Made by a program: the position numbers and the translations under genes
Notes under the pieces: generated by a model
Told to the model about the DNA's origin: nothing
The model's input: the letters and a program-made list of their open reading frames with translations, nothing else
Databases searched by the model: none
IMG/VR virus record: IMGVR_UViG_2778260994_000003
Location: 1 to 26,772 of that record
Length of the DNA: 26,772 nucleotides
Source: a virus
Taxonomy: Duplodnaviria; Heunggongvirae; Uroviricota; Caudoviricetes
Direction: 5' to 3' (one strand)
Part shown: positions 3,289 to 10,594 of the stretch, one piece after another
How positions within the stretch are numbered: position 1 is the stretch's first letter
How the letters are laid out: each line of letters begins with the position of its first letter

Positions 3289-3483
3289 ATGTCAACTAAG
3301 AACAGAACCCGCAGAACAACAACCCGCAACATCCGCTTTCCTAACCAAATGATTGAACAAATTAACATCGCTCTTGAGCAAAAAGGGTCTGGGAATTTCT
3401 CAGCCTGGGTCATTGAAGCCTGCCGTCGGAGACTAACGTCAGAAAAGAGAGCATATACATCAATCCAAAGTGATGATGAATAA
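3289..3483 (+). CDS. Small prophage protein, YlcI/YnfO-like (DUF3950-type)
   Basis: 64-aa basic ORF between the cos/Nu1 remnant and bor, the same position ylcI occupies in DLP12. Family assignment is from memory only. Confidence 0.5.
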   Translation: MSTKNRTRRTTTRNIRFPNQMIEQINIALEQKGSGNFSAWVIEACRRRLTSEKRAYTSIQSDDE

Positions 3484-3843: not shown

Positions 3844-4137
3844 ATGAAAAAAATGTTGTTTTCTGCCGCTCTGGCAATGCTTATTACAGGATGTGCTCAA
3901 CAGACGTTTACTGTTGGAAACAAACCGACAGCAGTAACACCAAAGGAAACCATCACCCATCATTTCTTCGTTTCGGGAATTGGACAGGAGAAAACTGTTG
4001 ATGCAGCCAAAATTTGTGGCGGCGCAGAAAATGTTGTTAAAACAGAAACCCAGCAAACATTCGTAAATGGATTTCTCGGTTTTATTACTTTAGGCATTTA
4101 TACTCCGCTGGAAGCGCGTGTGTATTGCTCACAATAA
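3844..4137 (+). CDS. bor: Bor/Iss-family outer-membrane lipoprotein
   Basis: MKKMLFSAALAMLITGCAQQTFTV...TPLEARVYCSQ with lipobox LITGC, near-identical to lambda Bor as recalled. AGGA motif upstream of the ATG at 3844. The track ORF beginning at 3796 is an N-terminal over-extension. Confidence 0.9.
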   Translation: MKKMLFSAALAMLITGCAQQTFTVGNKPTAVTPKETITHHFFVSGIGQEKTVDAAKICGGAENVVKTETQQTFVNGFLGFITLGIYTPLEARVYCSQ

Positions 4138-4309: not shown

Positions 4310-4492
4310 TCAATTCTGCATACACTGCCGAACACCGTCGACAATTTCACAGACCTGAGAAGCCGTATCGAAAAGCTGGCGCGCTTTATCCAGGCTGACG
4401 CATCCCACCAAGAAAAAAGGCACCAGTATCGCTACCAGTGCCCATTTCGCCGCCGTTCGCGGCATTCTGTGTGTCCAGTGTTTTCGCGTCAT
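4310..4492 (-). CDS. Small predicted lipoprotein (lipobox LVGC), function unknown
   Basis: 60-aa ORF with a signal-peptide-like N-terminus (KWALVAILVPFFLVGC). Its start is coupled (TGATATG) to an upstream 36-aa single-TM ORF at about 4497..4607 that has a GAGG Shine-Dalgarno. Confidence 0.4.
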   Translation of the reverse strand: MTRKHWTHRMPRTAAKWALVAILVPFFLVGCVSLDKARQLFDTASQVCEIVDGVRQCMQN

Positions 4493-4703
4493 ATCACCAC
4501 CAACGCACAGCCCAAATCAGAACAGCGACCGCCACAAGGCGAATTGCAAAGGCCGCAGCCCTTGTCAAATCAAGGCTCGCGGGAGTTTCCACTTCAATAC
4601 CTTTCATAATGGACAACCTCAAAAAGAATCTTTTATACTTTCCCACGAGGATTTTCTCCGTACTCACTACTCACAATTTCCTCTTTGACGTGAAAACTAA
4701 AAA

Positions 4704-4728
4704 CCCCGGACTGTTCCAGCAGCCGGGG
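4704..4728. terminator. Bidirectional intrinsic terminator-like hairpin downstream of the endolysin
   Basis: CCCCGG-13 nt-CCGGGG stem with T-runs following it on both strands. Confidence 0.55.
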
Positions 4729-4826
4729 TTTTTGCTATCTGATGCTGTACCCCTTACTTTCGCTCATCGTAACCCCAGAAAAGAGCCTGCGTGAGTTGAG
4801 GGTGTTCAGCACTTCAGCGTCAGTTT

Positions 4827-5372
4827 TTAAACTGCTACGCGCTCTTTCATCCAGCCGTAGACAAACGACTCGTTGGCCTCGCGTTTTTCTGCCAGCTCCA
4901 GATAGCGGTCGCCCTGCGTGCAATTCAGCGCCTTCAGCATCACCAGTTCGCCGTCTTTGCCGCGTTTTTGCAGATAAGTCCGTAGTGCATTAATCGTGCG
5001 GGGGCCGATACGCCCGTCTGCGTCCATATCCGGGAACAATTTGCCTTGCAGGTTGAAAACGTTCAGCCAGCGTTGGAGCATTTTCGATGCTACGGACGGC
5101 CCCATATTCACACCGGTATCACACAACTCTGCAGCAATATCAGAGGATAATGCGGCCACCTGATCAAAGCGTGGTCCGAACCAGTAATCCGCCTCAAGGA
5201 TTTCCAGTGCCTGTTCGCGTGTCAGGTCACGCATATCGCCCTGATATCCGTGAGCGCGGGCGACTTTTTCCGTAATACCCCATTTTGTCGGTCCGCCTTT
5301 ATCATCCGGGTGATTGACGTAACCGCCCTCTTTTCCCAGAACTTCGTCAAAAATTTCATCTTTCGACTTCAT
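4827..5372 (-). CDS. Endolysin, GH108-type muramidase with C-terminal peptidoglycan-binding domain
   Basis: Motif EGGYVNHPDDKGGPTKWGIT near the N-terminus and DADGRIGPRT near the C-terminus. The ATG at 5372 is coupled to the upstream stop (TGATATG). The track start at 5393 is probably an over-extension. Confidence 0.8.
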   Translation of the reverse strand: MKSKDEIFDEVLGKEGGYVNHPDDKGGPTKWGITEKVARAHGYQGDMRDLTREQALEILEADYWFGPRFDQVAALSSDIAAELCDTGVNMGPSVASKMLQRWLNVFNLQGKLFPDMDADGRIGPRTINALRTYLQKRGKDGELVMLKALNCTQGDRYLELAEKREANESFVYGWMKERVAV

Positions 5373-5373
5373 A

Positions 5374-5652
5374 TCAGCGTCTTCGTAATACAAAGATTTT
5401 TGAAACGTTCCCGCGTGCGCGAATAACCAACACGCAGAACAGCAGATTAAGCCCCACCGCCAGCCAGTTCGCCGCTAACGGGCGACCGCACAGATAACTG
5501 AGTGGTGCAAAGGCATAAAGCAGCATCAGCAGCCAGGCCAGCCATGACATCAACGGTTTATGTCTGGAATCACGACGACGATAAAAAAAGAGCGTCAGCA
5601 CGATAACCGTGCATAACGCCACATTCAGCAATCCGGGAAGGTTACTTAACAT
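5374..5652 (-). CDS. Lysis-cassette membrane protein (holin or antiholin-like, 3 predicted TM)
   Basis: 92-aa hydrophobic protein with GGAGG upstream of the ATG at 5652. It overlaps the upstream ORF's stop and abuts the endolysin start. Confidence 0.5.
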   Translation of the reverse strand: MLSNLPGLLNVALCTVIVLTLFFYRRRDSRHKPLMSWLAWLLMLLYAFAPLSYLCGRPLAANWLAVGLNLLFCVLVIRARGNVSKIFVLRRR

Positions 5653-6781: not shown

Positions 6782-6856
<75 letters not shown>

Positions 6857-6859
6857 ATA

Positions 6860-6935
<76 letters not shown>

Positions 6936-10240: not shown

Positions 10241-10594
10241 TTATTTACATGCAATAACGCTCGTAATACCCTCTACAAAACCAATTGCAGTTTGTAATTC
10301 CTTTCTAATCGTGCCATCTGAACACCTTCTCTTTTTGGCAATAGTGCGTAATGAGATACCAATAACAAAGTGGGCTATGATGAGCTCATATTCCTCTGGT
10401 TTATACCTTCTCAACCGAGCCACACAACTGTCTATCATAATGCCTTCGTCATCATCACACTGAATCCGTGACTTTTTGCCATGAGGTAAAAGCCCCTTGA
10501 AGCCCGCTGCTATCGGTTGCCAATCGACACCACTATTTTCTGCTGCAGCCCATGCCCCCCAGCGGTCTAAAACCTCATACATATCACGCCCCAT
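10241..10594 (-). CDS. Late antiterminator Q (QuuD/QuuQ-type)
   Basis: LDRWGAWAA...DWQPIAAGFKGL...KSRIQCDDDEG matches the remembered QuuD pattern. The probable start is the ATG at 10594; the track ORF begins with GTG at 10603. Confidence 0.8.
   Translation of the reverse strand: MGRDMYEVLDRWGAWAAAENSGVDWQPIAAGFKGLLPHGKKSRIQCDDDEGIMIDSCVARLRRYKPEEYELIIAHFVIGISLRTIAKKRRCSDGTIRKELQTAIGFVEGITSVIACK

Follow-up and report, generated by a model that had tools for sequence, protein, structure and literature searches.

A predicted o-spanin-derived lipoprotein without a recognisable i-spanin in the spanin position of a lambdoid Escherichia coli prophage

Introduction

How does a phage of a Gram-negative host breach the outer membrane when its lysis cassette carries neither Rz nor Rz1? 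About 13% of such phages have no recognisable spanin, and one locus bearing on this question is found in the Caudoviricetes record IMGVR_UViG_2778260994_000003 of IMG/VR (positions 1 to 26,772; this whole stretch of 26,772 nucleotides is called the window below), which is part of a lambdoid E. coli prophage. Two small genes follow the endolysin gene there: one for a 37-residue protein with a single transmembrane domain (TMD), which we call mini-TM, and one for a 60-residue lipoprotein precursor. A sequence-only reading of this DNA had proposed that the two might form a non-canonical two-component spanin, or else an unrelated envelope module, such as an exclusion system, read from its own promoter. 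We favour another reading, to which we assign a probability of about one half: the lipoprotein would be a lysis protein derived from an outer-membrane spanin (o-spanin) that acts on the outer membrane without an inner-membrane spanin (i-spanin), and mini-TM would be an independent accessory membrane protein. That a homologue in phage phiP27 had been listed as a predicted o-spanin in 2018 is already known. What is new is comparative evidence on both genes: the lipoprotein appears to lack an i-spanin and swaps with Rz/Rz1 among cassettes that are otherwise identical, and mini-TM, its neighbour, appears to be a widespread, unstudied companion of spanin genes.

Results

In the loci examined, the lipoprotein gene occurs only in lysis cassettes and alternates with Rz/Rz1

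We gathered 80 IMG/VR loci with the lipoprotein as query and mapped their cassette genes; lipoprotein loci numbered 94 overall. In all loci examined (the 80 from IMG/VR, phage records and genomes), the lipoprotein gene directly followed the endolysin region of a phiP27-type lysis cassette, of which it was the final gene, and every IMG/VR locus with upstream sequence had the order PF16931 holin, PF05449 holin, M15 peptidase or GH108 endolysin, lipoprotein. Conservation outside lysis regions had been named at the outset as an outcome that would count against a lysis role; no such context was detected among the 94 loci. The spacing to the endolysin varied. The lipoprotein gene lay 14 nt past the M15 peptidase gene, with nothing between, in 30 of the 80 IMG/VR loci; in loci of Yersinia enterocolitica and of a Logan metagenome assembly (L100) its start overlapped the GH108 stop (ATGA), and in another locus (L072) it was at or overlapping this stop. 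About a quarter of related loci had the mini-TM gene between endolysin and lipoprotein, as in the window, and the lipoprotein without mini-TM was also seen in Yersinia, Logan and JGI loci. In other loci two different small transmembrane genes intervened, phrog_1115 (48-60 aa, with an N-terminus related to that of mini-TM) and phrog_4906 (44 aa), which in some GH108 cassettes were located between the terminator and the lipoprotein (L017, L099 3662-3996; L113 2157-2496). Insertions before the lipoprotein were found in phiP27 (a reverse-strand gene) and in vB_Apl-pPE4 (a KilA-N gene).

Among 1.84 billion representatives, a profile search retrieved only 22 relatives, including a subfamily with a clearly different mature sequence. 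Members of this subfamily came from other genera and metagenomes; their lipoprotein gene was placed 3-6 nt after an M15 endolysin, once behind a PF05106 holin. The lipoprotein cassette was combined with unrelated terminase, head and tail modules, and the gene was present in 355 of 5426 complete E. coli genomes (about 6%).

The most informative comparison involved sibling cassettes. In E. coli (L101-L103) we found the order PF16931, PF05449, M15, mini-TM, Rz/Rz1, and in Yersinia (L106-L108) the order PF16931, PF05449, GH108, mini-TM, Rz; another group of Yersinia loci (L096-L098) had the same holins and GH108 endolysin as L106-L108, followed by the lipoprotein in place of mini-TM and Rz. The cassette of the window has mini-TM and then the lipoprotein, where its siblings have mini-TM and then Rz/Rz1. 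An intact lipoprotein together with Rz was found in none of the loci examined. Phage GER2 (L004 4279-4494) and E. coli FORC_043 (L112 2480-2700) have mini-TM and Rz/Rz1 intact and, 1.2 kb further downstream, a lipoprotein pseudogene broken by four in-frame stops, with a reverse-strand lipopolysaccharide heptose-phosphate phosphatase gene between; lipoprotein pseudogenes were seen next to Rz only. More distant PF16931/PF05449 cassettes (HK639, 118970_sal3) had ordinary spanin pairs in this slot. Since the lipoprotein alternates with Rz/Rz1 and decays beside it, the outer-membrane step of lysis is the most economical assignment for it. In a survey of Shiga toxin (Stx) phages, Rz was reported in 277 of 279 and the metallopeptidase endolysin, which is the phiP27-type enzyme, in two cluster-C phages (PMC8136144); we infer that these two phages are the two without Rz.

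The slot can also hold other genes. In Rac-SA53 (L093 3663-5438), LT-IIa enterotoxin genes directly follow the GH108 endolysin and neither the lipoprotein nor a spanin is present.

Both small open reading frames are genes under purifying selection

The 60-residue open reading frame (ORF) with lipobox LVGC was confirmed (Table 1). Its signal peptide, MTRKHWTHRMPRTAAKWALVAILVPFFLVG, would be cleaved before the Cys, with L-V-G-C as residues 28-31; the lipobox is invariant across the family and is followed by Val at +2 and Ser at +3, so that the protein has the lipobox and the lack of Asp at +2 that are expected of an o-spanin with predicted lipidation. Its reading frame was the sole one open in all 48 distinct DNA versions, and the ratio of nonsynonymous to synonymous differences (pN/pS) was 0.18 for the whole gene and 0.12 for its mature part. 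For mini-TM, seven distinct coding sequences with differences at 20% of bases gave pS 0.60 and pN 0.078 (ratio 0.13). Both ORFs are thus real genes under purifying selection.

The lipoprotein matched phrog_7528 (E 5.7e-39) and mini-TM matched phrog_4493 (E 7.4e-16, or 3.3e-23 for a 57-aa form), both families of 'unknown function'. Scans against Pfam (the window protein at E<=1 and all 15 aligned lipoprotein-family members, the window's included, at E<=10), NCBIfam and PADLOC matched neither protein to any model; the search of PADLOC-DB for anti-phage defence or exclusion proteins was carried to E<=10. A sequence search of the PDB gave only chance-level matches. The mature lipoprotein is proline-free, has a net charge of -1, and was assigned 83% helix in a published secondary-structure prediction (Kongari et al. 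2018, BMC Bioinformatics 19:326). Besides the lipid-modified Cys it contains two further Cys residues (Cys18 and Cys27 of the mature part) that are nearly invariant in both subfamilies and, like the length of ~60 aa, are retained where the mature sequence is clearly different. These periplasmic Cys residues suggest disulfide bonding, possibly intermolecular as in Rz1. A disulfide-stapled hairpin of Cys18 and Cys27 around 'DG' was considered and rejected, as the diverged subfamily has another Cys spacing (i+10) and no turn motif. A unimolecular spanin of the T1 gp11 type was likewise dropped: the lipoprotein stops 29 residues past the lipid-modified Cys, without a hydrophobic segment.

RefSeq/PGAP places the start of the lipoprotein at the second ATG (51 aa), nine codons too late: residues 1-9 (M.RKHWTHR) are conserved across subfamilies and in LysC-type proteins. 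Within the signal-peptide codons (WALVAILVPFF) we also noticed a terminator-like hairpin followed by a T-run (4418-4443, minus strand). Synonymous variation was not reduced there (pS 0.145, compared with 0.159 in the mature part), and the hairpin is therefore probably incidental.

The signal peptide is related to that of LysC-type o-spanins

In tblastn searches, residues 2-31 of the lipoprotein weakly matched the Rz1 genes of phages SfII, SfV and SfIV; the SfII protein starts with MQNSRSHWSHREPRLISKW...LNGC and the window lipoprotein with MTRKHWTHRMPRTAAKW...LVGC. Pairwise BLASTP between the lipoprotein and a LysC-type signal peptide gave an E value of 1e-8, and hhalign of the lipoprotein-family profile with a profile of 20 'Rz1-like lysis system protein LysC' (PF23793) sequences gave a probability of 97.3% and an E value of 2.3e-11 over 33 columns. 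The homology to the LysC signal peptide covers residues 2-34, with the shared motif R.HW[ST]HR.PR...KW. At the DNA level, the first ~100 nt of the lipoprotein gene (window 4400-4492, minus strand) could be aligned with the Rz/LysC overlap of SfII-type genes (L115 880-1000; L094 4020-4100), and the second frame of the gene reads K-T-L-D-T-Q-N-A-A where Rz reads I-A-L-E-S-Q-R-T-Q. This second frame, which still looks like the C-terminal frame of Rz, would be a fossil of a lost i-spanin. The phiP27 record annotates L32 (L002 4940-5095; cf. L003 5336-5491) in the same frame and not in that of the lipoprotein.

Downstream of the signal peptide the two families part. The proline-rich spacer and conserved SLDLNVSLLSAL.QCN.DK motif that mark the mature domain of LysC were not detected in the lipoprotein, which had no Pfam or NCBIfam match at E<=10. 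We also tried a likeness seen by eye between the mature peptide and a C-terminal segment of LysC (SLD...L[LF]...C) and rejected it (profile-profile E 0.72). The comparison suggests that the lipoprotein gene kept an o-spanin export signal and lost both the overlapping i-spanin gene and a proline-rich spacer of ~36 residues, leaving a short mature peptide that appears to be its own.

No i-spanin was detected

The absence of an Rz/Rz1-type pair after the endolysin, noted by the sequence-only reading, held up: in the window's lysis region, Rz gave no tblastn match and no second lipobox ORF was found in any frame. This region also had no type-II membrane protein resembling an i-spanin. We then used a crude scan for proteins whose only TMD is N-terminal and precedes 50 or more hydrophilic residues, which recovered Rz in all of 8 control loci. 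Within 4 kb of the lipoprotein, no consistent type-II candidate was detected in the 94 loci, and the whole phiP27 genome had no credible one. Mini-TM does not have the topology of an i-spanin (N-terminal TMD and periplasmic domain): its TMD is C-terminal and leaves at most 16 other residues. Together with the 30 residues of the lipoprotein this makes at most 46 extramembrane residues, compared with a published range of 62-300 periplasmic residues for spanins (Kongari et al. 2018, BMC Bioinformatics 19:326), and the pair therefore falls short of bridging the periplasm. Nor do the two proteins always occur together, as the components of a spanin would: the lipoprotein was found without mini-TM in at least 30 of the 80 IMG/VR loci, and mini-TM was found with Rz/Rz1.

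The same survey listed phiP27 as having a 'separated' spanin pair, which at 62 periplasmic residues was its shortest (Kongari et al. 2018, BMC Bioinformatics 19:326). Its o-spanin (20706..20861) is a homologue of the window lipoprotein with 95% identity. Its i-spanin (20348..20542) is a 64-aa ORF with a TTG start, antisense to a 90-aa ORF of phrog_36812 (E 5e-20); it matched no PHROG family and was lacking in nearly all relatives. On these sequence features, the phiP27 i-spanin call is most likely spurious.

Mini-TM is a frequent neighbour of spanin genes

The sequence-only reading described a mini-TM ORF with a GAGG Shine-Dalgarno sequence, which was present, though with 37 codons, not 36: the ATG is at 4605-4607, sense codons occupy 4497..4607, and the TGA stop is at 4494-4496. 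GAGG is located 9 nt before the ATG. The TMD spans residues ~17-37 and the protein ends in RWW. An alternative start, GTG 4646, would give 50 aa in place of the 37 aa from ATG 4607. The 39 nt between these starts diverge by 6.6%, compared with 20% in the coding region, and this conservation would fit coding sequence, a ribosome-binding region or an opposite-strand promoter equally well.

Mini-TM genes were found in 867 of 5426 complete E. coli genomes (16%), compared with 355 for the lipoprotein. Most copies (80-90% identical to that of the window) were in Stx-type prophages, upstream of a complete Rz/Rz1, in the order S holin, R lysozyme, terminator, mini-TM, TGATATG, Rz with embedded Rz1. 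The junction TGATATGA stood before the lipoprotein and equally before three diverged Rz types (two of E. coli and one of Yersinia), and mini-TM variants linked to Rz and to the lipoprotein differed by conservative changes only. By these comparisons, mini-TM appears to be a gene that stands in front of spanins generally, independent of the lipoprotein. It may be viewed as an independent accessory inner-membrane protein, probably modulating the last lysis step or its timing.

A bidirectional terminator and a candidate antisense promoter upstream of mini-TM

The bidirectional terminator that the sequence-only reading placed after the endolysin was present (Table 1). It folds at -24.7 kcal/mol (z = -2.7), and because an A-tract and a U-tract flank the hairpin it can act both ways. 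The hairpin was kept in front of every mini-TM gene. The promoter proposed for the pair did not materialise: in a simple scan of the minus strand, the stretch from the terminator to the mini-TM ORF showed no sigma-70 promoter.

On the opposite strand, a candidate sigma-70 promoter matching 10 of 12 consensus positions was identified within the 39 nt upstream of the mini-TM ATG. Both of its hexamers were unchanged in 17 of 17 distinct mini-TM upstream regions from E. coli, Yersinia and Cronobacter. Beyond it, the sequence fell into three unrelated types, each ending at a bidirectional terminator. The candidate promoter would yield an RNA of ~90 nt (about 4646-4736), antisense to the mini-TM leader. 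A search of Rfam gave a sub-threshold match to the P22 antisense sar RNA (RF00262; 23.3 bits compared with a gathering score of 43, E 0.19). The putative plus-strand RNA may be a regulatory antisense RNA; alternatively, the 39 nt may be conserved because they hold the ribosome-binding region or code for an N-terminal extension that starts at GTG 4646. The anti-sRNAs described by Tree et al. 2014 are encoded upstream of the lysis cassette and not at the mini-TM position. Literature searches gave nothing relevant on the RefSeq accessions, on orphan o-spanins or on small RNAs at this position.

Genomic setting

The 651 bases around the two ORFs had 99.5-99.8% identity to several E. coli chromosomes, many of them enterotoxigenic E. 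coli, and parts matched the Shiga toxin phages phiP27 and phiSTEC1575-Stx2k. RefSeq annotation of an identical locus reads DNA methyltransferase, tRNA-Thr, tRNA-Gly, 'putative holin', 'phage holin family protein' and GH108 protein, then two 'hypothetical proteins' (37 and 51 aa), iss/bor and ylcI on the other strand, and lambda-type packaging and head genes beyond. The lysis genes and the two small ORFs are all on the minus strand.

The coupling of mini-TM to the lipoprotein by TGATATG (4490-4496), and of the PF05449 holin to the endolysin by the same sequence (5370-5376), were both found as first described. The motif occurs 11 times in the window, with 4.05 +/- 1.9 expected (sites 1489, 4490, 5370, 10580 and 7 others), and in at least three of them, on the minus strand, it links two genes as a stop-T-start junction (4490, 5370 and 10580, the third at 10580-10586). 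It is a habitual junction type in this phage and no special signal.

Just past the lipoprotein gene, the opposite strand encodes the serum-survival lipoprotein iss/bor and a member of the ylcI/ynfO family, and genes for tRNA-Gly(tcc) and tRNA-Thr(tgt) precede the lysis cassette at the place taken by tRNAs and stx2e in phiP27 (Table 1). In prophages of Cronobacter and E. coli, genes for pertussis-toxin-like subunits (PF02917; eplA/eplB) were detected directly before this type of cassette (L099 1489-2217; L093 1276-2507). Toxin genes adjoining the cassette type thus comprise Stx2e, Stx2k and pertussis-like toxins upstream, and LT-II directly after the endolysin.

Table 1. Features of the lysis region and its surroundings in the window
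Feature	Position	Strand	Remarks
Lipoprotein gene, 60-aa precursor, phrog_7528	4310..4492	-	Lipobox LVGC, Cys31, 30-residue mature part CVSLDKARQLFDTASQVCEIVDGVRQCMQN
Mini-TM gene, 37 aa, phrog_4493	4494..4607	-	MKGIEVETPASLDLTRAAAFAIRLVAVAVLIWAVRWW; acidic 16-residue N-tail and C-terminal TMD
Candidate sigma-70 promoter TGGACA-18-TATACT, 10/12	4610..4639	+	Within 39 nt upstream of mini-TM ATG
Bidirectional intrinsic terminator hairpin, A5-CCCCGG...CCGGGG-U5	about 4695..4736		Between endolysin and mini-TM gene
Endolysin, 181 aa	4827..5372	-	Glyco_hydro_108 E 1.7e-26 and PG_binding_3 E 1.2e-25; RefSeq on identical locus
Second lysis-cassette membrane protein, 92 aa	5374..5652	-	PF05449 Phage_holin_3_7; phrog_217 holin
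First lysis-cassette membrane protein, 130 aa	5642..6034	-	PF16931 Phage_holin_8 E 3e-22; phrog_198 holin E 3e-43
ylcI/ynfO-family gene	3289-3483	+	Just downstream of lipoprotein
iss/bor serum-survival lipoprotein gene	3845-4137	+	Just downstream of lipoprotein
tRNA-Gly(tcc) and tRNA-Thr(tgt)	6782-6935	-	Upstream of lysis cassette

Discussion

A possible role for the lipoprotein in the outer-membrane step

The proposed sequence of events would begin with a LysC-type o-spanin gene that lost its overlapping i-spanin gene and its proline-rich spacer, giving rise to the lipoprotein gene, and with recombination that placed two separate genes, mini-TM and the lipoprotein, next to each other in the spanin slot. 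Late transcription would start at pR' and, antiterminated by Q, read through the terminator, because it must reach the packaging genes downstream. By the usual sequence rules, the lipoprotein would then be exported by Sec and lipidated at Cys31 before signal peptidase II cleaves it; because its +2 residue is Val and not Asp, Lol would carry it to the outer membrane, where it would sit in the inner leaflet. When the wall has been degraded by the endolysin, the 30-residue, probably helical peptide with its two Cys residues would most likely carry out the outer-membrane step alone, as its replacement of spanins in this slot suggests, weakening or rupturing this membrane with no bridge to the inner one. 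It might do so by destabilising the membrane, as bacteriocin release proteins or entericidin B do, or by interfering with a tether of the outer membrane. Since the lipoprotein is found with either of two endolysin families, with at least two sets of holins and with many kinds of virion, its target is probably a component of the host envelope and not a phage protein. A fuller statement is more tentative, and we regard it as possible but doubtful: that this 30-residue lipoprotein, with i-spanin and spacer lost, is sufficient for the outer-membrane lysis step, and that the 37-aa membrane protein may be a lysis component under a conserved antisense promoter.

Several observations weigh against an i-spanin-independent lysis lipoprotein. 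All support for it is comparative, and expression and function of the lipoprotein are read from sequence. The mature part of 30 residues cannot span the periplasm, and we know of no i-spanin-independent lipoprotein that disrupts the outer membrane in phage lysis. When the mature parts of the lipoprotein and LysC were compared with hhalign, no similarity was detected (E 0.72), and therefore the signal peptide alone ties the lipoprotein to spanins. The AlphaFold2 model of the precursor is a single long helix of low confidence (pLDDT 66), the amphipathicity of the mature peptide is moderate (9% of shuffles were as good, p about 0.09), and the peptide is slightly anionic, unlike the cationic disruptin. 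The loci were retrieved with the genes themselves as queries, and the mutual exclusion of lipoprotein and Rz does not come from an unbiased sample. Finally, the LT-IIa genes after the endolysin of Rac-SA53 mean that occupancy of the slot does not prove function.

Alternative explanations

The Rac-SA53 example leads to the reading that the lipoprotein, with or without mini-TM, is non-lysis cargo of an envelope-modifying, superinfection-exclusion or serum-resistance type, held in a permissive site by phages that have no spanin. Such a site takes LT-IIa genes, bor/iss lies just downstream in the window, and about 13% of phages of Gram-negative hosts have no recognisable spanin; as known from lambda Rz/Rz1 mutants, spanins are dispensable in shaken cultures. 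We regard this reading as unlikely, as the lipoprotein gene has neither promoter nor terminator of its own, is translationally coupled to or overlaps the endolysin gene in diverged members, and decays where Rz/Rz1 is present. The exclusion module first suggested for the pair fared no better, with no minus-strand promoter, no non-lysis context in the 94 loci and no PADLOC match; the gene stays with the lysis cassette where the virion modules around it are unrelated, whereas a receptor-blocking protein would be expected to track the tail genes. Quite unlikely, too, is that the lipoprotein is a strict o-spanin whose inner-membrane partner (a holin-like protein, a host protein or a small transmembrane protein) has escaped recognition. 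The homology of its signal peptide to LysC o-spanins, periplasmic Cys residues conserved as in Rz1, the one or two different small transmembrane genes (phrog_1115, phrog_4906) that precede it in several cassettes, and the classification of the phiP27 homologue as a separated o-spanin (Kongari et al. 2018) would all agree with such a partner. Yet the i-spanin proposed for phiP27 is antisense to a phrog_36812 gene, has no PHROG match and is absent from relatives; the cassette holins are exchanged for PF05106 in L110/L111, no conserved type-II protein was found within 4 kb in the 94 loci, and thirty residues are too short for the periplasm.

A role in tuning lysis, in which the lipoprotein and/or mini-TM would act as an antiholin-like timer, in a releasin-like manner or like Lcc6 of LambdaSo, or mini-TM would be a small membrane toxin under an antisense RNA, is distinctly improbable to us as an explanation of the locus. 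Small transmembrane modulators of lysis do exist (Lcc6, of 65 aa, acts at the holin level), mini-TM is always found within lysis cassettes, and an opposite-strand sigma-70-like promoter, invariant in 17 of 17 distinct upstream regions, faces the bidirectional terminator, with a weak match to sar RNA; but this match is well under the gathering score, and the free combination of lipoprotein and mini-TM with three holin and three endolysin families argues against a specific protein partner. The non-canonical two-component spanin of the sequence-only reading, with mini-TM as an unusual type-I inner-membrane anchor and the lipoprotein as its outer-membrane partner, survives in part: the lipoprotein does occupy the spanin slot and has an o-spanin-related signal peptide. 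The genes are adjacent and joined by TGATATG in the window and about a quarter of related loci, and both are under purifying selection. As partners the two are very improbable, because most lipoprotein cassettes, including the commonest type, lack mini-TM (the 30 of 80 loci with the lipoprotein at 14 nt past the endolysin and those with an ATGA overlap), most mini-TM genes are followed by and coupled to a complete Rz/Rz1, the variants in the two settings differ only conservatively, and mini-TM has no i-spanin topology, the pair's 46 extramembrane residues at most lying under the published minimum of 62. It is extremely improbable that the lipoprotein ORF is a non-functional o-spanin fossil left by deletion of Rz, although the LysC resemblance is confined to its 5' third and clear pseudogene copies exist: the frame is open in 48 of 48 distinct sequences with pN/pS of 0.12-0.18, length and Cys residues are conserved in the diverged subfamily, which comes from other genera and metagenomes, and pseudogenes occur next to Rz only.

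Significance and comparison with known systems

An o-spanin-derived lipoprotein that acts without an i-spanin would bear on how spanin-less phages breach the outer membrane. If it suffices for this step, phages would have a third type of protein for disrupting the outer membrane, after spanins and disruptin; the gene is carried by about 6% of complete E. coli genomes and by Stx2e/Stx2k and LT-II toxin phages. Members of the family occur in E. coli, in inducible toxin-converting phages (phiP27, phiSTEC1575-Stx2k), and natural 'isogenic' cassettes have Rz/Rz1 where these have the lipoprotein, so that the idea is directly testable. Some records may need correction: the 'shortest spanin pair' of phiP27 likely includes a false i-spanin, the RefSeq start of the lipoprotein is misplaced, and the phiP27 gene is annotated in the wrong frame. 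The mini-TM gene is very common and lies inside the best-studied type of lysis cassette, the S-R-Rz/Rz1 type of Stx phages.

Among known systems, the closest relative is the LysC-type o-spanin (PF23793; Rz1 of Shigella phage SfII, Salmonella phage 118970_sal3), which, like the lipoprotein, is the precursor of an outer-membrane lipoprotein encoded after the endolysin. Its first 33 residues (n-region motif, h-region and lipobox) are homologous to the lipoprotein, and 118970_sal3 has a distantly related PF16931/PF05449 cassette with Rz and LysC in the slot held here by the lipoprotein. The mature part of LysC, however, has about 70 residues with a proline-rich spacer, compared with 30 residues and no spacer in the lipoprotein, and LysC has an i-spanin, whereas the lipoprotein has none overlapping or adjacent. 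Lambda Rz/Rz1 (PF03245/PF06085) shares the late-operon position and is interchangeable with the lipoprotein after the same mini-TM and TGATATG in sibling cassettes; the lipoprotein resembles lambda Rz1 as a predicted outer-membrane lipoprotein with periplasmic Cys residues. Unlike lambda Rz/Rz1, it has no Rz-like partner, embedded architecture or proline-rich sequence and is far too short to bridge the periplasm.

In size, the lipoprotein is nearer to colicin lysis proteins, or bacteriocin release proteins (PF02402), and entericidin B (PF08085), very small lipoproteins with mature parts of 27-33 residues that compromise the envelope by themselves; the lipobox of ColE1 Kil is also LVGC. There is no sequence similarity and no Pfam match between them and the lipoprotein (window protein at E<=1, 15 members at E<=10), and these proteins, unlike the lipoprotein, are Gly/Ser-rich or lack the two Cys residues. 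Disruptin (gp28 of phage phiKT) is a single small protein proposed to replace spanins in a spanin-less coliphage and is, to our knowledge, the only characterised alternative to them. It is cationic, non-lipidated and released from the cytoplasm via holin lesions, whereas the lipoprotein is slightly anionic and predicted to be exported by Sec and Lol and lipidated. For mini-TM, the nearest counterpart, compared by description, is Lcc6 of LambdaSo, which has 65 aa, is encoded outside the cassette and acts at the holin step. Both are lysis-associated proteins of a few dozen residues with a single TMD and no known family, but mini-TM, unlike Lcc6, is always encoded directly before the gene for the outer-membrane step.

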